This document shows, one piece after another, positions 12,358 to 42,866 of a DNA stretch of 64,000 nucleotides. The stretch lies in contig CAZBAS010000005.1 of NCBI GenBank assembly GCA_964490395.1, forward strand, positions 17,167 through 81,166, read 5' to 3'. Below the pieces are notes generated by a model. It was given only the letters and a program-made list of their open reading frames with translations. It did no database searches and was not told the origin of the DNA. The position numbers and the translations under genes were made by a program. Position 1 is the first letter of the stretch. Each line of letters begins with the position of its first letter. The stretch comes from an uncultured Candidatus Saccharibacteria bacterium. GTDB lineage: Bacteria; Patescibacteriota; Doudnabacteria; UBA920.

Positions 12358-14001
12358 TTAAGTGTTTCGCAAGTGTTTCTCGTAGTACTCCATGTCTGCG
12401 TCGGTCTTTTTGTGGGGGTTAAATATGTTCAGTGGGTCAAATATTTTTTTAGTTTGACGGAATAGCTCCATAACGTGGGAGCCGTACATCATTTCTAGGT
12501 AGGGACCGCGTACAATGCCATCGTTATGTTCGGCGGTAATGGAGCCTCTATATTCCATAACTAGTGCAAAAACTTCGTTGGAGAGTCGTACTACTGCATC
12601 TCGTTGTGACTGCTCGGTTAGGTCCATGAGCGGCATTATGTGGAAATTGGCATCTCCGGCGTGTCCTGCAATGGTGTAAATAAAGTTTGGGTAGCGGGCA
12701 AAAATTTTGTTTAAGCGGGGAAGGAATTCGGGCAGCTGGTCGGAATGGACAATAATATCTTCTATAAAACACGCAGCAAGCCTATTTTTCGTATGCTGGC
12801 GAAGCAAGTTATAGCTCTCGCGGCGAATAGTCCAGTACTTCTTTGCGTCTACAACATCTTTAGTTATGCGGGAGGAAAGTTTAAATGTTGACTCTATGGC
12901 AGTTTGGGTGGCGCGGGCTTTCTCTAAAGCCTTTGCATCGGTATCTGCGGTAAACTCCGCAAGCAAGACCAGGCGAGGGAAGCCGCCCGTTATGGACATC
13001 CATATTTCGGGGAGGAACTGTTTTAAGAGGCTTAGGCTTTTACCGCCCATTTTTTGCATTATCTCTGGCAGGTACTGCATGGCGAGCCGCAGTGTGTGGT
13101 CGTCGTAGAGTTCAAAACTTTCAGGACGATATTTTTTAATCTCGTTTACAACACGGCCAAGGTCAGTTAGGTCCTGCATGAACACCACCACCATGCGGCT
13201 ATGAGGCTTCACGGGTACGAGTTGAAAAGTGATGTTCGTAATTATGCCTAGTGTGCCTTGCGAGCCAACCAGTAGTTTGGTAAGGTCAAATGTTTGGCCA
13301 TCCCATACCTTCCACAAATAGTAGCCAGCAGAGTTTTTAGACGTAGAAGGTTCTGCTTTTTTTATGAGTTCGTAATTGCTCGATATGAGGTGCCATATTT
13401 TTTTATATAGGGTGCCCTCAAAGCTATTCTCTTTTATTTTATTTATCAGCTGGGCTTCGGTAAGAGGTTGTATGGTGTGCGTTTTGCCGTCGGCAAGTAC
13501 AATGTCGAGTTTTTTGACCCAATCCACTGTTTGCCCGTACGATAAAGATTTTTCACCGCCAGCATTGTTTCCCACCATGCCTCCTACGCCGCATATGGCC
13601 TTAGAAGCCGGGTAACTAGGCATTATAAGATTGTGCTTCAGGGTAACTTTTTCTAAGTCTCGGTAGTAAGCACCAGGCTGCACATCTATAGTTTGTTCGT
13701 CAGTAACACTGCCAATGGTATGTAAATGCTCGGCAAAGTTTATGAGCACAGATTCGGTAATGCTGCCGCCCGTCATGTCTGTGCCGCCGGCGCGCGGTGT
13801 AAGAGATATGTCTTGGCCTTCTTCTTTTGCGTTTGTGGCAAAAGCAACTAAAGACTCTATGTCCGCAGTACTTGTAGGGCTGGCGACTATTTCGGGCGTG
13901 GCTTCAAATATACTCGCGTCGTGGCTAAATGTAGCGCGGGTAGGGGCGTCCACGTGTATTTCGCCAGTAAAATTTTGTTTTAGTTTCTCTACGTCAATCA
14001 T
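12358..14001 (-). CDS. FAD-linked oxidase (PCMH-type FAD-binding domain; GlcD / D-lactate dehydrogenase / vanillyl-alcohol-oxidase family)
   Basis: 547 aa; FAD-binding N-terminal domain (RAGGTDMTGG) and a C-terminal FAD-oxidase domain. Confidence 0.8.
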   Translation of the reverse strand: MIDVEKLKQNFTGEIHVDAPTRATFSHDASIFEATPEIVASPTSTADIESLVAFATNAKEEGQDISLTPRAGGTDMTGGSITESVLINFAEHLHTIGSVTDEQTIDVQPGAYYRDLEKVTLKHNLIMPSYPASKAICGVGGMVGNNAGGEKSLSYGQTVDWVKKLDIVLADGKTHTIQPLTEAQLINKIKENSFEGTLYKKIWHLISSNYELIKKAEPSTSKNSAGYYLWKVWDGQTFDLTKLLVGSQGTLGIITNITFQLVPVKPHSRMVVVFMQDLTDLGRVVNEIKKYRPESFELYDDHTLRLAMQYLPEIMQKMGGKSLSLLKQFLPEIWMSITGGFPRLVLLAEFTADTDAKALEKARATQTAIESTFKLSSRITKDVVDAKKYWTIRRESYNLLRQHTKNRLAACFIEDIIVHSDQLPEFLPRLNKIFARYPNFIYTIAGHAGDANFHIMPLMDLTEQSQRDAVVRLSNEVFALVMEYRGSITAEHNDGIVRGPYLEMMYGSHVMELFRQTKKIFDPLNIFNPHKKTDADMEYYEKHLRNT

Positions 14002-21974: not shown

Positions 21975-23066
21975 TTAAATAATGGCTCGTTTGCCTCGTT
22001 CTTGCCTTACAATGGTACGAGCGGTGCGGCTATTTTTCTTTTCCCGCTTCTTTTTTGATAGCGTTGCTTCGTAGTCTATTTTGCGGGCGTGGCTGGTGAG
22101 TTCGGTTTTTAGTTTCAGAAAACTGTTATACCGTTCTTTACTCAGGGTGCCGTTTTGTACTGCTGCGAGTAGTGCGCAGCCCTGGCTTAATTGGTGGTCG
22201 CAGTCAGTGAATTTGCACTGTAAAGCCAAGTCTTCTATGTCGCCGAAAGCTGCTTCAAGTGAAGTGGTTTCATCTCCCCAGAGCTGCATTTCACGCATGC
22301 CAGGAGTGTCTATAATTATGCCGCCGCCCGGAAGTACAATGAGTTGCCGTACAGTGGTGGTGTGTCTACCGCGCTGGTCTTCGGCTCGTACTTCACTGGT
22401 TGCCAATACATCATTTTGTGCTAAATAATTTATAAGACTCGACTTGCCTACACCCGAAGGTCCCATAAGCACTGCTGTTTCGCCTGCGGGGAGGTGCTGG
22501 GTAATTGCCTCGATACCAAGGCCTGTTTTAGTGCTGGTAATAAGTATGGGCAAAGTAGGGAAGCGGGCTTTGGCTGCTTCGATGAAGGTATGTTTTTCAG
22601 TTTCAGATACTGCATCTGCTTTGGTTAAGATGAGCGCTGCCTCTACGTGCGCAGTCTCGGGCACGACCAGAAACCGTTCTATGCGGTTAGGATCAAAGGT
22701 GTTTGAAAGGCTTTCCACTATGTACACAATGTCTACATTTGTCGCAATAATTTGCGGCTCTAACCGTTTCCCTACTTTTTTACGTGACAGCTGACTAAAA
22801 CGGGGGAGTACACGAGTAAGCTTTAGTTTTGTGTCGCCGGGTATTGTTTCTACGGTGACCCAGTCGCCTACTTTTGGTCTTTCTTCAGAGCTGGCTCCCG
22901 TAATGAGTGTCTTGGGCGCAATGGCATCTTGTTGGCCGTCTTTGGTATACACGGTGTACCGCGTGCCGTACTCAGCGGTAATGCGCGCAACAGACTCCTC
23001 AGGTGCTACTGTGTGCTGAGTGCGTGCTGTATAGTGGTTAAGACCGAGTGTTTCTAGGGTATGCAT
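21975..23066 (-). CDS. rsgA: Ribosome small-subunit-dependent GTPase A (RsgA / YjeQ)
   Basis: N-terminal OB fold; circularly permuted GTPase (MGPSGVGKSSLINYL); C-terminal zinc finger CKFTDCDHQLSQGCA. Confidence 0.85.
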   Translation of the reverse strand: MHTLETLGLNHYTARTQHTVAPEESVARITAEYGTRYTVYTKDGQQDAIAPKTLITGASSEERPKVGDWVTVETIPGDTKLKLTRVLPRFSQLSRKKVGKRLEPQIIATNVDIVYIVESLSNTFDPNRIERFLVVPETAHVEAALILTKADAVSETEKHTFIEAAKARFPTLPILITSTKTGLGIEAITQHLPAGETAVLMGPSGVGKSSLINYLAQNDVLATSEVRAEDQRGRHTTTVRQLIVLPGGGIIIDTPGMREMQLWGDETTSLEAAFGDIEDLALQCKFTDCDHQLSQGCALLAAVQNGTLSKERYNSFLKLKTELTSHARKIDYEATLSKKKREKKNSRTARTIVRQERGKRAII

Positions 23067-32962: not shown

Positions 32963-34402
32963 ATGAATAAGACAACAAGTGCGGCCGAGGTAAACCTTGA
33001 GTCGCCGGCTACGTTTGAAGGACTGGGGATACACGAAAAGTTTTTGGTTATGTTGAACAGGGCTGGCTATACAGTGCCAACACCTATTCAGCAGCAATCC
33101 ATCCCTATTAGTTTGAAAGGGGAAGATGTTCTCGGTATTGCGCAAACAGGTACTGGTAAAACCCTGGCTTTTGGCGTGCCAATGATTCAGCGCCTTGTCC
33201 AAGAAAAAGGTATGGGTTTGGTAGTACTGCCAACTCGAGAACTTGCAGTACAGGTAGAAAGTTCACTGCACCGCATAGGCAAAGAAATTGGTCTTCGCAC
33301 TGCGCTGCTTATAGGTGGTGAACCAATGGGTAAGCAAATGAGAGCGCTTCGCAGTAATCCGTACATTATTATAGCCACTCCTGGTCGTCTCATAGACCAC
33401 TTGGAACAAAAAACCATCAGCCTAGATACAGTAAAGGTACTCGTGCTGGATGAAGCCGATCGCATGCTCGACATGGGATTTGCACCACAGCTCAAGCGCA
33501 TACTTCAGTCTGTGCCTGCTGAGCGACAAACCATGCTCTTCTCTGCAACCATGCCCGATGAGATTGTAAAAATAGCTGCAGGGTACATGAAACTTCCGGT
33601 GCGGGTAGAAGTTGCTCGTGCTGGCACTGCCTCTAAAAACATTACCCAGGAAGTAGTGTTTGTGCACAAGGCAGATAAACTTGCAGTACTGAAACAGCTT
33701 CTTTCTGAAGAAGCTGGTAACATTTTGGTATTTAGCCGAACCAAGTTTGGCGCAAAGAAAATTGCCAGCAGCGTTCGCGATTGGGGTTTTTCTTCTACCG
33801 AACTTCACTCCAACCGTACGCTCAATCAGCGCCTTTCTTCTTTGCAGGGTTTTAAAACTGGTAAGTATAAAGTGTTGGTGGCAACCGATATTGCTGCTCG
33901 CGGTATAGATGTGACTGGTATAGCACTGGTAGTAAATTTTGACTTGCCTATGCAAGCAGAAGATTACGTGCACCGCATTGGTCGTACTGGCCGTGCTGGT
34001 TTGTCTGGTAAAGCTATTTCGTTTGCTGCTCCAGAACAGCGCCGCGATGTGCGAGACATAGAACGTCTCATTGGCCAAATGTTGCCCGTAAAGCAACTTG
34101 GCAAAATAGAACGCTTGGCTCCTACTCCACGCTCTGCTGAACAGCGAGAAGAGCGACCTCGCACGTTTGCGCCTCGTACTCCTCGCGCTGAAAATCCGTT
34201 TTCAACCAAACCTCGTGCTGGTTTTGGCGGTCGTTCTCACAGTGGCAAGTCAAGCGCTGGTCGCAGCCGTTCCAGTTTTGGTGGCGGCGCTGAGCGCAGC
34301 AGTGCACGGCCATCGTTTGGTCGCAAACCTTCCTTCCGTGGCGGCATGCAAGAACGTCCACTGCCATCGGGTAGCAGACGTTCTGGTCGCGGTCGCTCCT
34401 AG
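32963..34402 (+). CDS. DEAD-box ATP-dependent RNA helicase with an RG/S-rich C-terminal tail
   Basis: Q-motif; AQTGTGKT, PTRELA, DEAD, SAT and HRIGRTGRAG motifs. Confidence 0.9.
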   Translation: MNKTTSAAEVNLESPATFEGLGIHEKFLVMLNRAGYTVPTPIQQQSIPISLKGEDVLGIAQTGTGKTLAFGVPMIQRLVQEKGMGLVVLPTRELAVQVESSLHRIGKEIGLRTALLIGGEPMGKQMRALRSNPYIIIATPGRLIDHLEQKTISLDTVKVLVLDEADRMLDMGFAPQLKRILQSVPAERQTMLFSATMPDEIVKIAAGYMKLPVRVEVARAGTASKNITQEVVFVHKADKLAVLKQLLSEEAGNILVFSRTKFGAKKIASSVRDWGFSSTELHSNRTLNQRLSSLQGFKTGKYKVLVATDIAARGIDVTGIALVVNFDLPMQAEDYVHRIGRTGRAGLSGKAISFAAPEQRRDVRDIERLIGQMLPVKQLGKIERLAPTPRSAEQREERPRTFAPRTPRAENPFSTKPRAGFGGRSHSGKSSAGRSRSSFGGGAERSSARPSFGRKPSFRGGMQERPLPSGSRRSGRGRS

Positions 34403-34423
34403 GCATAACGTATATACCAAAAA

Positions 34424-34450
34424 AGGCACAGGTGTGCCTTTTTTGTTTTC
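34424..34450 (+). terminator. Rho-independent terminator after the helicase gene
   Basis: aaaaaaggcacaggtgtgccttttttg. Confidence 0.55.
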
Positions 34451-34534
34451 ATATTATCTTCACCAGCCCACCGTATACTAGTAGTACTGCTAGTTCTAGA
34501 GTACTGGCAGCGATCCTTAAATGAAAGGACGGAT

Positions 34535-34636
34535 ATGGCAAATGCTACCACTCCAAACAAGAGCGCGAAAAAGCAATCCGCAAATAAAAAAGAAGGCGAA
34601 GGTTTTGAATTACTTGAAGATATATTCGACTTCTAA
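34535..34636 (+). CDS. Tiny acidic ORF 1 (33 aa)
   Basis: MANATTPNKSAKKQSANKKEGEGFELLEDIFDF; upstream gaaagga SD; first of three tandem small ORFs with a conserved upstream tta..gaaagga..tatATGGC context. Confidence 0.35.
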   Translation: MANATTPNKSAKKQSANKKEGEGFELLEDIFDF

Positions 34637-34672
34637 ATTCCGCCCGGAACATTAATTGTGAAAGGAATATAT

Positions 34673-34774
34673 ATGGCAGATACTAACGACGATCCTGTAG
34701 AAGATATAATCAATCCTAAAAAAGAAAATACTGGTACCGGCATTGGGGTTATAGATGACCTAAACAAAGCATAG
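34673..34774 (+). CDS. Tiny acidic ORF 2 (33 aa)
   Basis: MADTNDDPVEDIINPKKENTGTGIGVIDDLNKA; same upstream context as ORF 1. Confidence 0.35.
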   Translation: MADTNDDPVEDIINPKKENTGTGIGVIDDLNKA

Positions 34775-34832
34775 CCAGTTAGCCCACTTTACCAGCGATG
34801 GTTAACAGTACTATTAACACGAAAGGAACTAT

Positions 34833-34967
34833 ATGGCTGCAGATGACGACATAGCATCCGCACAAGCGGATGAAGAGGCTGCTCAAAGCGCTTTGGATGA
34901 TGCCAAAGAAGCAGAAGCAAGCGCCCATGAAAGAAAGGCCGCAGAGGTACGCGATAGTGAATCGTAA
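34833..34967 (+). CDS. Tiny acidic ORF 3 (44 aa)
   Basis: MAADDDIASAQADEEAAQSALDDAKEAEASAHERKAAEVRDSES; same upstream context as ORF 1. Confidence 0.35.
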   Translation: MAADDDIASAQADEEAAQSALDDAKEAEASAHERKAAEVRDSES

Positions 34968-35082
34968 GGACGTATTGATACTATATATAACACCGCCTAT
35001 TCAAGCGCAATAGGCGGTGTTGCGTTATTTCCCGATATTTTGCTATAATTGGACAGCCAGTTTTGGCAGCAAAATTGTATAT

Positions 35083-35157
35083 TCGGGAGTAGCTCAGCGG
35101 TAGAGCGGCACGCTGTTAACGTGATGGTCCTGGGTTCGATCCCCAGCTCCCGAGCCA
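35083..35157 (+). tRNA. tRNA-Asn (anticodon GTT), CCA encoded
   Basis: Acceptor tcgggag/ctcccga; D-arm gctcagcggtagagc; anticodon loop ctGTTaa; T-arm ctggg-ttcgatc-cccag; discriminator g, then cca. Confidence 0.85.
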
Positions 35158-35470
35158 ACAAAAAAGTAGTACTTTAGTACTACTTTTTTGTTGGCTCGAT
35201 GAGGAGTGCAGGGATCGAAGGGAACGGTCCCGTACCGCAGGGAATTTCATGCGAATACTTGCAGCATGAAATAGTGGCGGGGTCGCGTTAGGTGAGAACT
35301 GAAACGACCTTAAGGAGTTGAAGTTCCACCGTGGGTGACCAATCCCCAGCTCCCGAGCCAACAAAAATACGTCACCTTTTGGTGGCGTTTTTTTCTTGGC
35401 TCATGGAGGAGCGCAGGGATTGAAGGGAACGGTCCCGTACCACGGGAATTTCATGCGAACACTTAGGGCT
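35150..35470 (+). repeat. Direct repeats of the tRNA-Asn 3' end, long hairpins and a duplicated ~65-nt segment
   Basis: atccccagctcccgagccaacaaaaa recurs at about 35339-35364. Each copy is followed by a long hairpin whose stem includes cgagccaac (gagccaacaaaaaagtagtac-ttt-gtactacttttttgttggctc). The segment ttggctcgatgaggagtgcagggatcgaagggaacggtcccgtacc... is repeated imperfectly at about 35396. Confidence 0.45.
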
Positions 35471-35655
35471 CCCACACTACTTGGGCCTTTAGGTTAAGTA
35501 GGGTGGGAAGAGGAGTAATCCTGAAAGGAATAAGAGTAAGTCTTTCTAAAGTTTACTTACATGACTGCAAGGCATTGCGACGAATTCCAGAATTATAGAA
35601 ACTCGATTCGGCTTTTCTTAACTTCCTTTTTGAACTTAGGAACTTTACGTTCATG

Positions 35656-35685
35656 TTGACAAAAGTACATATTAGTGCTTAAATA
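35656..35685 (+). promoter_or_regulatory. Sigma-70-like promoter upstream of the MAT gene
   Basis: TTGACA, a 17-nt spacer, then TTAAAT. Confidence 0.4.
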
Positions 35686-35709
35686 TATAAGCTGATTTTG
35701 CAGCAAAAC

Positions 35710-35742
35710 AAAAAGAGTTCGCCCGAACTCTTTTATTTTTTG
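35710..35742 (+). terminator. Stem-loop with a T-run inside the MAT leader (possible attenuator)
   Basis: aaaagagttcgcccgaactctttt followed by attttttg, between the predicted promoter and the SD/ATG at 35771. Confidence 0.45.
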
Positions 35743-35770
35743 TTCTTCGACAATCCACAGAGGAGGCGCG

Positions 35771-36997
35771 ATGAATTTCGGTTTTGTAAGTCAACATGGT
35801 CTTGGAAGTTTGCAGCAAGAAGTTATTGAGCGTAAAGGAATTGGGCATCCGGACACCCTAACTGACGCGTTAGCTGAACGTATGTCGGCTCACTACGCCC
35901 AGTACACATTGAAGCATTACGGAGTTATTTTGCACCATAATTTTGACAAGTTACACATACTTGGCGGTGCAACAGAGCTAGATTTTGGCGGTGGTAGGCT
36001 GATACGCCCCATCAGAGTTATTATAAACGGTAGAGCGTCTGCAAGCTTCGCCGGTGAACAACTGCCTGTCCAGTACATTCTGGGCGATGCAGCACGGTCA
36101 TTCTTTCAGGAGCGTTTTCCTGGATTGATTGACCCGGCTCGCGACCTTGAATTTCACTGGCTGGTCAGTACTTCCAGTAGCCCAGGCAGAACTAAGCGGA
36201 CTACTGGGGCGAGAGCATACATGTTTAATCCTCGGACAGTCGCCGAAGTGAAAGGTTACGACGGTCCCTTGGTCAACAACGATACTTCCATGGGGTGCGG
36301 CTACGCGCCGTATTCTATTCTGGAAGCAGCGGTGTTGGGTCTGGAGAGGGATTTGAACAGCAGTGTCCGGAAGGATGAATTCCCATGGCTTGGTACCGAC
36401 ATTAAAGTCATGGCCGTGCGGCAAGATGATCTCATTTCCATTACGGTGTGCTTGCCGCAAATAGCAAGTAAAGTGGCAAGTGAACGCGCGTACCAAGAAA
36501 ATTTGGCTACGTTGGACCGGCATATCAGGAGACAGCTTGCCCGGCTACTTCAAGGCGCGCCGTTCGAACTGGGGTATAACACCCGCGACAACAGGCGTAC
36601 AGGCGATTACTATCTTACTGTCACAGGCACTGCCCTTGAGTCTGGCGATGAAGGAGTAGTGGGTCGCGGTAATCGCATCAACGGTCTTATTACACCATTC
36701 CGACCGATGAACTTGGAAGGGGTGTGTGGTAAGAATCCACTCTACCATACGGGAAAGTTATATAACATAGTGGCGCAGCGAATCGCTGAGCGTATTCACC
36801 GCGAAACTGGCGCGTACTGCGAAGCGTACTTAGTGGGCCAAAGTGGACAAGCGTTGCTTGACCCGTGGTCTGCAACTATACGCAGCGCAGATACTAACTT
36901 GGATGCAGCAACTGCCCAAGCGTGGGCAGTTGAAGAAATACAACAAATTCCTGCTATAACCCAAGCGTTGGTGAAGCAGGAATTGACGTTATGGTAA
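35771..36997 (+). CDS. Archaeal-type S-adenosylmethionine synthetase (methionine adenosyltransferase, MAT)
   Basis: ERKGIGHPD, ILHHNFD, NNDTSMGCGYAP, DIKVM and YYLTVTGTALESGDEGVVGRGNRINGLITPFRPMNLEGVCGKNP...HTGKLYN are collinear with the archaeal MAT family; SD gaggagg upstream. Confidence 0.85.
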   Translation: MNFGFVSQHGLGSLQQEVIERKGIGHPDTLTDALAERMSAHYAQYTLKHYGVILHHNFDKLHILGGATELDFGGGRLIRPIRVIINGRASASFAGEQLPVQYILGDAARSFFQERFPGLIDPARDLEFHWLVSTSSSPGRTKRTTGARAYMFNPRTVAEVKGYDGPLVNNDTSMGCGYAPYSILEAAVLGLERDLNSSVRKDEFPWLGTDIKVMAVRQDDLISITVCLPQIASKVASERAYQENLATLDRHIRRQLARLLQGAPFELGYNTRDNRRTGDYYLTVTGTALESGDEGVVGRGNRINGLITPFRPMNLEGVCGKNPLYHTGKLYNIVAQRIAERIHRETGAYCEAYLVGQSGQALLDPWSATIRSADTNLDAATAQAWAVEEIQQIPAITQALVKQELTLW

Positions 36998-37010
36998 GAA
37001 AGGGAAAACC

Positions 37011-38057
37011 ATGCGCAAAGAACCACAAGACTACTCGCAGGCGCGAGATAGTTTCCTTTTGGAGAGGGGTTGGGCGTGTGCAGTCTGCCCCCGTTGCCAA
37101 AAACCATTTTTTACCAAACAGCGTTATCCATTGAATACGTGTGGCTCATACCGGTGCGAAGGTGGATATGTATTTTTGCAACGCCCCGCACCCAAGATAA
37201 AATTGACTGCCGCAGCGGCGGTAGATCATTTTTGTTTTACGGAGTTTGTTCGTGCGCCGACCATAGATTTGGTTCGGCGTGGCGAGCGGACTTTGTTTGC
37301 AAGCGCAGCTGGTCAAGTTCATGATGCTTGTATCTATGGCGGCGATATTACTATCGCTCCGCAGTGTTCGGTACTGCAGCCGGTTGTAAGGCTACAGTGT
37401 CTGCATGCAATAGATGAGCAAGATGGATTCTCCAGTAGTTTTCTCAACGCAGGGTTGGCTTGGTGGCAAGCGAGTCCTGAGCAGCACTTTCAAGCGTTCG
37501 ACAAGTTGCTCCAGTACTTGTCCCTACACGGAATATGTGTTGGGCACTTGGCGTTGAAACTCGACAGCGCAGAGAATGTGTGGGGCGACCTGCACGTACC
37601 CACGGACAGTCTAAAAATGAATTATGGTGGACTCGAAATTGGCATAGCCAACTTCTTTAACCATATTCAAACACCAAATGGCGAATCAAGCTTTAGCGAC
37701 ATTAGTCTTGGCGTGGAGAGGTTTGTATGGGCTGCGAATAAAAACGGCTCGTACTTTGACGACCTCGCTCCGGTCCAGTATGCTTCTGAGGTAAAAAGAA
37801 GCGTGCTAGACGCGGTACGCACGGCCACTTTGCTTATGGCTTCCGGGCTTACTCCTGGGAGCGTCCATCACGGGCAAAAGCTCCGCCTCATTCTGGGTCA
37901 GCTTCGCGACATTGGGTTCTGCCTTGACTGGTTTGGACTTGTCCGGTACTTCCACCAATTTTGGCGGCAGTTTATCGAACTGAGCCGGACAGAGGTGGAA
38001 TGTTATGAAGTATTAGAGCAAGAGCTAATGCACTTGCGCAATACCAGGCCTAACTAA
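37011..38057 (+). CDS. Hypothetical protein with an N-terminal Cys4 zinc ribbon
   Basis: CAVCPRC...CGSYRC; 348 aa; starts 14 nt after the MAT stop, so operonic. Confidence 0.55.
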   Translation: MRKEPQDYSQARDSFLLERGWACAVCPRCQKPFFTKQRYPLNTCGSYRCEGGYVFLQRPAPKIKLTAAAAVDHFCFTEFVRAPTIDLVRRGERTLFASAAGQVHDACIYGGDITIAPQCSVLQPVVRLQCLHAIDEQDGFSSSFLNAGLAWWQASPEQHFQAFDKLLQYLSLHGICVGHLALKLDSAENVWGDLHVPTDSLKMNYGGLEIGIANFFNHIQTPNGESSFSDISLGVERFVWAANKNGSYFDDLAPVQYASEVKRSVLDAVRTATLLMASGLTPGSVHHGQKLRLILGQLRDIGFCLDWFGLVRYFHQFWRQFIELSRTEVECYEVLEQELMHLRNTRPN

Positions 38058-38066
38058 TTCCATTCC

Positions 38067-38726
38067 ATGACTAACATATTTCTTGGCGGCGGGGGGTCTG
38101 CTATAGACTCCTTGCCGCTCGACCAACACTTTGCCAATCTTTTAGATAAGCAGAAACTGCTTGTCTATATTCCCAACGCCATGACCTCGCGCCCTTTTTC
38201 AGAGTGCATGGAATGGTTTACACATACGTTTGCTCCTTTGGGAGTAAATCGTATAGAAATGTGGGATCGGCTGCAGCCGCAGGCGGATGTTTCCGAGATT
38301 GCGGGAATATATGTGGGCGGCGGCGATACGGGCAGGCTTTTGAAACTGATACGAGAATCGCACTTTTCGGAATACATAGTAGAAGCGGTCAAGTCAGGCG
38401 TGCCAGTCTACGGCGGTAGCGCTGGGGCTATTGTACTTGGCCGTGACATTCGCACTGCGCCAGAAGCGGTTAATCTATCCTTGCAAGATGCAACAGGGTT
38501 AGGTTTGCTTGCTGATGAGTGCGTCGCGTGTCACTATGTCCCAGAACGAGAAACCAGTGTTTGTCACGCTGTATCGTCATTGGGCTACTCTATAATTGCT
38601 ATTCCAGAAAAGTCCGGTTTGTATTATAACGGTCAAGTATATTCGGTTTTCGGAACCGAGTCTGCTTGGCTTTTTTCTATGGATGAGAAAAAAGAACTGC
38701 TGTCAGGGGAGAGTTATACGCTGTAA
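38067..38726 (+). CDS. Peptidase S51 family protein (dipeptidase E / cyanophycinase-like)
   Basis: FLGGGGS, IYVGGGDTGRLL and YGGSAGAIV motifs of the S51 Ser hydrolase family. Confidence 0.7.
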   Translation: MTNIFLGGGGSAIDSLPLDQHFANLLDKQKLLVYIPNAMTSRPFSECMEWFTHTFAPLGVNRIEMWDRLQPQADVSEIAGIYVGGGDTGRLLKLIRESHFSEYIVEAVKSGVPVYGGSAGAIVLGRDIRTAPEAVNLSLQDATGLGLLADECVACHYVPERETSVCHAVSSLGYSIIAIPEKSGLYYNGQVYSVFGTESAWLFSMDEKKELLSGESYTL

Positions 38727-38762
38727 TAATTATTGTATTTTATAAATTTAATTGAATTACCT

Positions 38763-40760: not shown

Positions 40761-42866
40761 ATGGCCTACCAAAATTACGAGAAAAATGAGAGTAAGTTGT
40801 CTCACCATAAGCAGTTTAAGAAGGAGTTAAAACCTCCGCTCCTTACGCTTAATATGACAACCTATTCTTGGATAAATGACCGCATGCCTGAAATGTTATG
40901 GGCGGTTTTAGTCATTGGGAATATAGAAAGAGAAATTGCCTTAAAATTTTTCAGAACTATTGCCGAATTTGTACATAAGAATCCTGACTGTTCAGATGTA
41001 ACACTTACTGGTATTAGCAAATTTCATGAAGAAAAGAAAAAGCAATTTATTCAACTTGCCACAAGCTGGTCAGAGGAAGTAAAAAATGTCTTAAAGCCTT
41101 TGATGTGGCTTGAGCAGCTACCAGCAAAAGAAGTATGGAAGGAATTGCTAGGAGAACCTGCAAGGAAGGATGAAGATTTTAATAAACTAGCCAATGGCGT
41201 ATCTAAGACTTACTGGCACCAATCAGAAGCAGCTACTGACTGTAGATGGATTAAATTTTTGTGCCAGATACTAGGCGGAAAAATGTCTTTTACAAAAGGT
41301 ATGGAAGATAAAGTAAAAGGTGTTTTAGAATATCCAAACTACGGAGATTTGAAAACTATAAGACCCTTTATAAGGGCATCTGAAATTATGCCATCCGACC
41401 CTGATGCGGATAAACCTTTTCATAGTGATTGGTCATTTAATTTTTGGCAACAATGTTTTGATGAAACTGGTTGTCTCCCAGAAGAGAAGGTTAGTCAGAA
41501 AATCCGAAAGAAACAAGACGATTTGTTTCAAGAAATGAAAAAATCAAGAGAGTTTAGATTAAAGCAAATAGTTGATGTAAGACATAATTTAATTGAACAC
41601 TCGATTAAGGAGTCAAAAATTTCTTCTGTAGATGCAAGACATGAAGGAAGTTTTGGTTTGGCTTTGTATGGTCTCTCTCTGTATATTGAAATTATTTTTT
41701 ATACAGTATCACTCTCGATTACGGGCAGATTGGCTATGCGAGCTTTAGTAGAGTGTTATATAACATTTAAGTATTTATTACAAAAGGAAAAAAGTGAGCC
41801 AGCCATATGGGACACTTATCGCGAGTACGGAAACGGGCAACTAAAGCTGCTTTATCTAAAACTCAAAGAAATGAACCAGAAGATAGGAAGTATTGAAATT
41901 GATACACTAGACGAATTAGCGAATGAAGATAAATCGGTTGAGTTTGTTCCTATAAATCTAGGGAATTGGGACTCTGAAAATTTGAGAAAAATGGGCGCAG
42001 AAGCTGGGCTTAAAGATTTATACGATAAATACTATAGCTATACATCTGGTTTCATGCATGGAAGCTGGGGAGCTGTCAGAGAGTCTATTTACCAAAAGTG
42101 CGTAAATCCTCTTCATAGATTTCACAGAATACCTATTTTTGATATGCCTTTAATGTCGAGTGTGGTTGACGATGCAACAGAAATTATGAATGGCATCCTA
42201 GAATGTTTGTCAGTAGCATATCCTAAATTTGATGATAGATTATTAAATTCTGATAGCCTAGACAAAACAGAGGCTAAGTCAGAAGAACTAAGCCCTCAAC
42301 CAATTAAAGCAAGTAGCATCGCTAAGGGAATACATCATAGCATTAAAAATGCGGAAAGATATGTTCAGTCAGCTAAGGAGCTGAAAACTAAAGATAAACA
42401 GGCTGCCTATCTCTTATTTCTTTATGCGCTAGAAGAAATGGGAAAAGTTCCTTTAATTTGGAATGCTTTATTTCATACAGAAACAAAGAGTGAATGGCTA
42501 AAGTGGCAAAGAAGGTTCAAAGACCATGCAGAAAAATTTTGGTTTAGTAGAGATCTTGAAGATTTTGATGAGAGGAAATTATCTAACAAAGAAAATAAGG
42601 CGGAAACAAAAATGGCAGCTAAAAAACTAGATGTATCTTACGTTAGCTTTGATGGTGAATTTCAACCCCCTGAAGATGTAGGCGAAGAGGAATTGGCGAA
42701 GATAGAGTTAAATTGCGAACGCAGAATCGCGTTCTTAAAAAGAAATCATAAATCAATTGAAGAGGACGAAAAAAGAATTGTAGAAGGTTATAAAAAAATG
42801 AAAGGTCTGACACAGGAAGAATTGAAAGAAATGATCAAGAACATGCAAAAAGAAAAATCGGATTAG
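40761..42866 (+). CDS. Large AT-rich, Lys-rich orphan protein (701 aa), unknown function
   Basis: About 35% GC against about 48% in its flanks; no family recognised; internal R-x5-H (VRHNLIEH) and a C-terminal K/E-rich coiled-coil-like tail. Confidence 0.6.
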   Translation: MAYQNYEKNESKLSHHKQFKKELKPPLLTLNMTTYSWINDRMPEMLWAVLVIGNIEREIALKFFRTIAEFVHKNPDCSDVTLTGISKFHEEKKKQFIQLATSWSEEVKNVLKPLMWLEQLPAKEVWKELLGEPARKDEDFNKLANGVSKTYWHQSEAATDCRWIKFLCQILGGKMSFTKGMEDKVKGVLEYPNYGDLKTIRPFIRASEIMPSDPDADKPFHSDWSFNFWQQCFDETGCLPEEKVSQKIRKKQDDLFQEMKKSREFRLKQIVDVRHNLIEHSIKESKISSVDARHEGSFGLALYGLSLYIEIIFYTVSLSITGRLAMRALVECYITFKYLLQKEKSEPAIWDTYREYGNGQLKLLYLKLKEMNQKIGSIEIDTLDELANEDKSVEFVPINLGNWDSENLRKMGAEAGLKDLYDKYYSYTSGFMHGSWGAVRESIYQKCVNPLHRFHRIPIFDMPLMSSVVDDATEIMNGILECLSVAYPKFDDRLLNSDSLDKTEAKSEELSPQPIKASSIAKGIHHSIKNAERYVQSAKELKTKDKQAAYLLFLYALEEMGKVPLIWNALFHTETKSEWLKWQRRFKDHAEKFWFSRDLEDFDERKLSNKENKAETKMAAKKLDVSYVSFDGEFQPPEDVGEEELAKIELNCERRIAFLKRNHKSIEEDEKRIVEGYKKMKGLTQEELKEMIKNMQKEKSD

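Follow-up and report, generated by a model that had tools for sequence, protein, structure and literature searches.

Are three very short open reading frames (ORFs), lying in tandem between a DEAD-box helicase gene and a tRNA-Asn gene, genuine genes, or are they incidental to a region with some other function? The question is raised by a stretch of 64,000 nucleotides from an uncultured Candidatus Saccharibacteria bacterium (contig CAZBAS010000005.1, positions 17,167 to 81,166; hereafter the window), in which an initial annotation had pointed to three tandem ORFs of 33, 33 and 44 aa, each beginning with MA and each preceded by a near-identical initiation context. All of these features are present on the + strand (Table 1), and the three small ORFs (sORFs) are here called s1, s2 and s3. 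Patterns of sequence conservation make it likely that the locus is a real operon of three independently translated small-protein genes, specific to one clade.

Conservation of the frames and their initiation context

Related sequences were collected by way of a query of concatenated s1 and s2, which returned one protein cluster (P0001) leading to contig L081, by searches with the helicase and by exact-sequence look-ups. The window's helicase had no exact match in the collections. Four lineages were distinguished. Lineage W is the window's own and includes L086, and lineage A (L082 and L083) is ~96% identical to the window in nucleotide sequence. In lineage B (L081 and L088-L095) the helicase is 94% identical in amino acid sequence, with a synonymous divergence (dS) of 0.52 and a ratio of nonsynonymous to synonymous divergence (dN/dS) of 0.07 when the window is compared to L081. 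Lineage C is a single contig of 941 nt (L087). The conserved sORFs sought in these relatives were found intact and in unchanged order in a further 15 contigs (L081-L083, L086-L095) covering the three lineages beyond the window's, intactness being judged on copies that do not run off a contig end. Across lineages s1 and s2 measure 33 aa each and s3 measures 43-49 aa, and the independent gene callers of the public assemblies annotate the sORFs as genes. That the ORFs are more than noise is borne out by the retention of frames, Shine-Dalgarno (SD) motifs and start codons in three other lineages and by an excess of synonymous change in s2 and s3. The initial annotation would have been refuted by a lack both of frames conserved in related genomes and of a translation signal, and the conserved frames and synonymous excess run counter to that outcome.

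The sequence leading into each of the three ORFs follows the pattern TTAA-N2-4-GAAAGGA-N3-4-ATATGGC, and its SD core GAAAGG is invariant before each ATG in all lineages. GAAAGGA followed after 3-8 nt by ATG, GTG or TTG occurs at only five sites on both strands of the window, three of which are the sORF starts, and the chance expectation of such a three-site cluster anywhere in the window is ~7e-6. It stands out all the more in a window otherwise poor in SD sequences, a 5-mer SD core being found at positions -18 to -4 of 5 out of 60 long ORFs (~8%, background 3.3%). Several genes of the window (e.g. 12358-14001 and 21975-23066) carry a TGnTATAAT-like box right before the ATG, which together with the SD scarcity suggests that many mRNAs in this genome are leaderless. 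An alternative start of s2, GTG at 34658, would give a peptide of 38 aa. At 34951-34975, overlapping the stop of s3, the context occurs a fourth time (GCGATAGTGAATCGTAAGGACGTAT; 72% identity to 34510-34534); this copy has no ORF and may be a vestigial fourth unit.

The unit is bounded upstream by the helicase-gene terminator, a strong bidirectional hairpin whose sequence is identical across all lineages. The leader that follows is read from its sequence as a putative promoter region: it contains the -10-like boxes TATTAT (34452-57) and TATACT (34474-79) and a near-palindrome, AGTACT-G-CTAG-TT-CTAG-AGTACT, at 34483-34505, and it is ~95% identical between the window and L081 despite the helicase dS given above. 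AGTACT palindromes are mildly enriched (24 against 14.8 expected). Divergence between the window and L081 is a mosaic over 32963-34770, with ~20% over the helicase gene's initial 800 nt and ~5% over 33743-34700, and this points to recent recombination between lineages. A second near-palindrome, directly 5' of the SD of s3, is possibly an operator or an mRNA hairpin and is not kept in L081. The helicase stop TAG (34400-34402) is CAG in L082 and L083 (L082 3941-3946), giving a protein of 481 rather than 479 aa.

The distribution of the cluster is narrow. The closest remaining helicases (L084, L085, L096 and L097; 76-80% amino acid identity) are followed by a gene for an extracytoplasmic function (ECF) sigma factor, none of the four has an sORF homologue, and in L084 and L085 no tRNA-Asn follows the helicase. 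With the helicase as anchor in GTDB genomes, the best among the matches listed are 62-64% identical and lack sORF homologues. The concatenated s1+s2 query gave no match in IMG/VR or the JGI metagenomes; the word-indexed s1+s2 search missed a 33-aa s1 cluster that is present in its collection and seems blind to very short representatives. No match to the sORFs was found by blastn in GenBank phages or PLSDB plasmids, and sequence searches of Pfam, NCBIfam, PHROGs, PADLOC and PDB yielded nothing significant. The idea of phage-derived small proteins accordingly found no backing in PHROGs, IMG/VR or GenBank phages, nor did any result point to the anti-sigma or anti-adaptor role named initially. No relatives are seen outside the four lineages, and the cluster is therefore confined to a single narrow clade, which the named helicase matches suggest to lie in the Patescibacteria, or Candidate Phyla Radiation (CPR).

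Table 1. Features of the sORF locus and its neighbours (coordinates are those of the window)
Feature	Coordinates	Strand	Description	Basis
s1	34535-34636	+	33 aa, MANATTPNKSAKKQSANKKEGEGFELLEDIFDF	ORF
s2	34673-34774	+	33 aa from ATG, MADTNDDPVEDIINPKKENTGTGIGVIDDLNKA	ORF
s3	34833-34967	+	44 aa, MAADDDIASAQADEEAAQSALDDAKEAEASAHERKAAEVRDSES	ORF
SD1	34523-29		GAAAGGA, spacer of 5 nt to s1 ATG	
SD2	34660-66		GAAAGGA, spacer of 6 nt to s2 ATG	
SD3	34821-27		GAAAGGA, spacer of 5 nt to s3 ATG	
Leader and putative promoter region	34446-34534	+		read from sequence
Near-palindrome	34801-34818	.	GTTAACAGTACTATTAAC, 18 nt, directly 5' of SD3	read from sequence
3' hairpin	34988-35022	+	14 bp, end of unit	terminator scan
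Upstream hairpin	34418-34445	+	12 bp, T-runs on both strands; helicase-gene terminator, upstream boundary	terminator scan
DEAD-box helicase gene	32963-34402		5' neighbour of the three sORFs	
tRNA-Asn promoter	~35037-35048		TTTTGCTATAAT, 3' of the 34988-35022 hairpin	
tRNA-Asn	35083-35157		3' neighbour of the three sORFs	
MAT	35771-36997		archaeal-type MAT, S-adenosylmethionine (SAM) synthetase (PF01941)	

Character and evolution of the three peptides

By its pattern of substitutions s2 evolves like a constrained protein, at rates matching those of the helicase. Between the window and L081 there are 9 synonymous differences (Sd) over 20.8 sites and 2 nonsynonymous differences (Nd) over 78.2 sites (dS 0.64, dN 0.026, dN/dS 0.04; Fisher p=7e-6), and the four protein alleles are all intact. 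One further observation on s2 is an allele of 41 aa (P0127) in which the TAG stop is lost. The peptide is acidic (net charge -5) and combines a DxNxDxxxD loop with an NTGTG turn; in the loop residues, D3-T-N5-D-D7-P-V-E-D11, the D-x-[DN]-x-D-G-x-x-D spacing of a calcium loop is kept while the Gly is replaced by Pro. An AlphaFold2 (AF2) model is of low confidence (predicted local distance difference test, pLDDT, 68) and uninformative.

The loop and turn resemble the Ca2+-binding hairpin of FG-GAP and FG-GAP_3 repeats (PF01839, PF13517). Searched with phmmer against 1.84 billion representatives, s2 returned its own cluster and only three other proteins, all FG-GAP_3 repeat proteins (P0130-P0132), each matched through 4-5 repeats, with MADTNDDPVEDIINPKKENTGTG of s2 in register with MADYDRDGIPDLVFIKTSNTGTG and with both the spacing and the NTGTG turn kept. 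The E-value of 1.2e-10 is inflated by summing over five repeats, and a single unit scores ~27 bits against s2 by hand tally, which is not significant in a search space of this size. A hidden Markov model (HMM) of the matching units assigned 24 bits to s2, the best of 2000 shuffles reaching 12.9; this test is circular because the units were picked for matching s2. The Pfam FG-GAP and FG-GAP_3 models miss s2 and its extended frame at E<=10; as a control, a true single 33-aa unit from P0130 matches them with E-values of 0.005 and 0.008. Unlike a beta-propeller, s2 is a single unit of 33 aa, about half a blade, in which the Gly of the DG pair is Pro, and the window holds no second FG-GAP-like unit and no tandem blade array. 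The resemblance is a lead, and homology is unproven.

The description of all three peptides as strongly acidic holds for s2 and for s3 (net -10) and fails for s1, whose net charge is -1. This value is composed of a basic N-terminal half (+5), disordered-looking, of low complexity and rich in Pro, Asn and Lys, and an acidic-aromatic C-terminal tip (-6). The tip, GFE[LV]LEDIFDF-COOH, is kept in all four lineages together with the frame and the SD; s1 is intact in 13 contigs of three lineages, and its C-terminal end is also present in L087, with the tip variant L26V. There are only 4-5 changes in all, namely A2V, A4T, G21S and E22D in addition to one synonymous Leu. Acidic-aromatic C-terminal tips serve in docking in other proteins, as in the D-D-D-I-P-F of the single-stranded DNA-binding protein SSB and the ...DDDMGFGLFD of ribosomal stalk P-proteins. 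The likeness of s1 to these is one of style only, consisting in a basic linker, an invariant acidic-hydrophobic tip and a terminal Phe (…KKEGEGFELLEDIFDF-COOH); unlike the SSB consensus D-D-D-[IL]-P-F-COOH, s1 ends in L-E-D-I-F-D-F, with -D-F instead of -P-F. Neither SSB nor a partner gene is present in the window.

Comparison of the lineages has shown s3 with its 3' hairpin to be a hypervariable allelic cassette, constrained among close strains and deeply diverged between lineages. All alleles are acidic and rich in Ala and Glu, and the window allele is modelled by AF2 as one continuous helix over residues 2-43 (pLDDT 92.5). Between the window and L082 the codon changes are five synonymous and one replacement (Sd 5, Nd 2; dN/dS 0.09, p=0.004). 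The check for purifying selection that had been proposed for the locus is positive for s2, subject to the antisense frame that shares its wobble positions, and, among close strains, for s3; for s1 it is uninformative (dN/dS 0.67). At greater distance, the orthologues occupying this position have lengths of 43 aa (at 58% identity) and 49 aa (at 34%), with synonymous sites saturated; they are homologous by shuffle test (p of 0.013 or less), and a profile search with s3 found only its own orthologue P0129. Although the nucleotide sequences differ by ~50% and contain indels, no stop interrupts the 43-49 codons of the frame; the probability of 43 random codons staying open is ~0.08 per allele.

Lineages W and C are identical in sequence up to codon 8 of s3, and identity resumes at the 3' arm of the hairpin, while between these points nucleotide identity is 58% and the proportion of synonymous differences (pS) is 0.71; the dS of the adjacent s2 is 0.05. 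In the comparison of W with B the divergent stretch begins at the stop of s2 and reaches as far as the tRNA promoter, with indels and an identity of 47%. The segment of s3 and hairpin measures 160-300 nt, its flanks are 95-97% identical, and its breakpoints vary by lineage pair. Saturated divergence of s3 between near-identical flanks indicates allelic replacement by recombination and not drift in situ. Throughout, the cassette keeps its frame, its acidity (at 34-58% identity) and the 14-bp hairpin, which all four lineages possess (z -3.4 to -4.9), with the top of the stem and the loop in three sequence versions, and which appears to be acting as a terminator or mRNA stabiliser. A diversity-generating retroelement was rejected as an explanation, there being no second copy of the s3 region above 13 nt and no long ORF with YxDD in the window. 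Polymorphic allelic cassettes between conserved flanks are known from the pherotype loci comC and agrD and from bacteriocin-immunity modules. The s3 cassette is like the comC/agrD type in its saturated divergence between conserved flanks, the population-genetic pattern alone being compared, and unlike it in having no processing or export machinery, receptor gene or leader motif and in being a plain acidic helix.

The proposal of a duplicated small-gene family receives faint support from s1 and s2 and none from s3, whose likeness to them ends with MA(A)DDD and the initiation context. The former two are equal in length and lie in one frame with a TAA codon intervening, and can be aligned over KKE..GxG-phi-x-phi-phi-[ED]D-phi (KKE--GEGFELLEDI in s1, KKENTGTGIGVIDDL in s2) at p=0.013 in an ungapped BLOSUM62 comparison and p=0.05 in a local one. 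No cross-matches were found by tblastn among the three. A duplicated initiation cassette with divergent bodies is a possible reading of these similarities.

A probable small-protein operon and its alternatives

If the locus is read as an operon, one mRNA of ~0.55 kb would start within 34446-34500 and end at the 34988-35022 hairpin, and every cistron would be initiated efficiently and on its own. Since s1, s2 and s3 lack signal peptides and hydrophobic segments, the products would be soluble cytoplasmic peptides. One may tentatively suppose, given their small size, that they act by docking onto larger partner proteins, s1 via its invariant acidic-aromatic tip, s2 via its short loop, possibly binding a divalent cation, and s3 as a single, highly acidic helix; the recurrent replacement of the s3 sequence would suit a surface involved in specificity or conflict. 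A more specific proposal, and a doubtful one, is a small-peptide recognition or conflict module in an SD-poor lineage, in which s1 and s2 are invariant and the acidic helix s3 is hypervariable. Balancing or diversifying selection would then preserve the deep s3 alleles, with recombination exchanging them, and the three cistrons, by virtue of their unusually strong SDs, would belong to a class of mRNAs translated in a special way. Maintained, deeply diverged alleles are otherwise known from immunity, pherotype or anti-defence determinants.

Several observations weigh against the operon or parts of its interpretation. The four lineages are closely related, and every statistic rests on few substitutions. 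In s1 there are 3-4 replacements to 1 synonymous change, and a dN/dS based on 4 changes cannot be used to judge selection because these lie in the mosaic tract of ~5% divergence. A scan for consensus sigma-70 promoters found none in the leader, and the T-run of the 3' hairpin is poor, so that transcription may read through into tRNA-Asn. The antisense ORF opposite s2 (34633-34767, 36-44 aa), whose wobble positions are common with those of s2, likewise shows Sd above Nd (5:2). Docking, finally, finds no support in any of the tests made.

The same observations can be read in other ways. Were the region non-coding RNA or intergenic DNA, the ORFs would be incidental and the GAAAGGA motifs would be sites for an RNA-binding protein, as in a GGA sponge of the CsrA/RsmE type. 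Such a view would accommodate the rarity of SD sequences in the genome, the fourth context copy that lacks an ORF (GCGAT..TAAGGACGTAT, 34951-34975), the folding of the 585-nt region, which is somewhat better than that of shuffles (z -2.7), and the behaviour of s1, which has no synonymous excess and is, with the leader, more conserved than the synonymous sites of the helicase. It is nevertheless improbable given the synonymous excess in s2 and s3, the survival of the s3 frame through saturated divergence and indels, and the placement of each GAAAGG 5-8 nt before the ATG of an ORF of at least 33 aa in every lineage; an Rfam search found no family in the sORF region at E<=1. A constraint at the RNA level as the cause of the low s1 dS was rejected, since the tract of low divergence is regional, taking in the helicase gene's 3' half as well. 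Very unlikely, too, is an inverted arrangement in which the true genes are hydrophobic, type I toxin-like peptides on the opposite strand (34545-34652, 34633-34767 and 34779-34928) and the + transcript is their antisense regulator. ORFs of 35-49 aa on the - strand do overlap each sORF, the upstream hairpin would serve both directions, and all four lineages have the ORF opposite s2 (MPVPVFSFLGLIISSTGSSLVSAIYIPFTINVPGGI), which encodes a hydrophobic peptide and, through the wobble positions it has in common with s2, also displays a synonymous excess, so that of the three this frame alone is ambiguous. Hydrophobic ORFs opposite acidic codons are, however, to be expected from the way the genetic code is built. 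Amino acid replacements are conservative in the s2 frame (I->L, V->I) and radical in the frame opposite (I->S, T->K, G->D). The antisense ATG-ORF does not cover the final 10 codons of s2, and there the change is synonymous for s2 in 4 of the 5 codons that differ (p=0.024). In L081 the ORF opposite s3 is interrupted (25 aa), and 5/6 of the s3 codon changes between the window and L082 are replacements in the antisense frame, the ORF opposite s1 has 3-5 replacements and zero synonymous changes, and the - strand offers no start context.

It could also be asked whether the sORFs are pseudogene debris with open frames, remnants of a decayed FG-GAP repeat gene or captured fragments. The register of s2 with the repeat unit MADYDGDGIPDL....NTGTG of three FG-GAP_3 proteins, its HMM score above all shuffles and the position of s1 and s2 in one frame with a single stop between them speak for such an origin, but the E-value and the HMM test have the weaknesses given above, the Pfam models miss s2, s1 does not match the unit HMM, and the window has no other unit. 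Debris would moreover not retain three SD-ATG contexts or purifying selection, which makes this origin quite improbable. Precursor peptides had been suggested initially, and tandem small ORFs with acidic, leader-like sequences would suit a ribosomally synthesized and post-translationally modified peptide (RiPP), a bacteriocin or a pheromone-like peptide with s3 as the variable core, as would the hypervariability of s3 alleles between conserved flanks, reminiscent of pherotype or bacteriocin loci, and the ending ...GNGGGIFS of the L081 allele. No conserved maturation enzyme, peptidase-ABC exporter or immunity gene adjoins the sORFs, though, and the downstream genes differ per lineage; none of the peptides contains Cys, the variable part has few Ser or Thr, no NCBIfam or Pfam precursor family matches, and neither a signal nor a double-glycine leader consensus is found, so that we consider precursors highly unlikely. 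Attenuation, with the sORFs as leader peptides regulating read-through into tRNA-Asn, strains belief most. The sORFs lie directly 5' of that gene, s1 and s2 contain 3 and 4 Asn codons, and the T-run of the 3' hairpin is weak; yet tRNA-Asn has its own conserved promoter of TGnTATAAT type after the hairpin, s3, which adjoins the hairpin, has no Asn codon in 3/4 alleles, runs of regulatory codons are missing, and three separately initiated ORFs are unlike known attenuator architecture.

Neighbourhood and significance

The placement of the sORFs just upstream of tRNA-Asn and MAT was described correctly by the initial annotation, both genes lying downstream in the window. A tie to the MAT operon has to be given up, because MAT belongs to a strain-specific island: the insertion 35354-38757, which carries MAT, an unknown ORF of 348 aa and an S51 peptidase, does not occur in lineage A, including the 96%-identical L082, which retains the three sORFs. 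At the corresponding site lineage B (L088 4163-7254) has a large serine recombinase with CsoR-like and cupredoxin (copper-related) genes, and lineage C (L087 717-941) has a GIY-YIG ORF. The differing inserts mark the 3' side of tRNA-Asn as an integration hotspot, with the sORFs on its stable 5' side.

Other observations concern this downstream region. A unit of ~204 bp is partly duplicated 3' of tRNA-Asn (35139-35546), and 26 nt of the 3' end of tRNA-Asn (35139-35164) recur exactly at 35342-35367. A segment of 170 nt (35193-35362; GGCUCG...CGAGCCA, with an end resembling a T-arm and acceptor) folds at -75 kcal/mol (z -6.0) and received no Rfam or ARAGORN assignment. In L082 its 3' half is conserved and its 5' half variable, and it may be a tRNA-like non-coding RNA or the remnant of an attachment (att) site. 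About 6 kb downstream (40761-42866) a protein of 701 aa with a DUF5677 and an HEPN_AbiV domain is a candidate for abortive-infection-type defence.

The probable small-protein operon is of a known kind, that of taxonomically restricted bacterial microprotein genes, and what sets it apart are the strong SDs in an SD-poor genome and the s3 cassette. Bacterial small proteins of 50 aa or less regulate larger proteins, examples being SgrT and MgtS of E. coli and Sda-type inhibitors. Like these small regulators, the sORFs are short (33-44 aa), have their own ribosome-binding sites, were missed by length-thresholded annotation and are of narrow taxonomic range, and their action is presumed to be through binding of a partner protein. 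Unlike them, the sORFs have no sequence relative in the libraries searched, form a dedicated operon of three barely related or unrelated members, encode soluble, acidic products rather than membrane helices, and belong to an SD-poor genome. Families of bacterial small proteins have been catalogued in GMSC (PMC11364881) and sORFdb (PMC11796252).

Without a phenotype or a partner protein, the result amounts to a well-supported correction of annotation and not to a new mechanism. If translated, s1, s2 and s3 would be three microproteins without a family in an uncultured lineage, adding to the evidence that length-thresholded annotation misses genes. The locus further provides a test case for the role of strong SD sites in a genome mostly devoid of them, and for why an acidic helix of 44 residues persists as ancient, recombining alleles between near-identical flanks.

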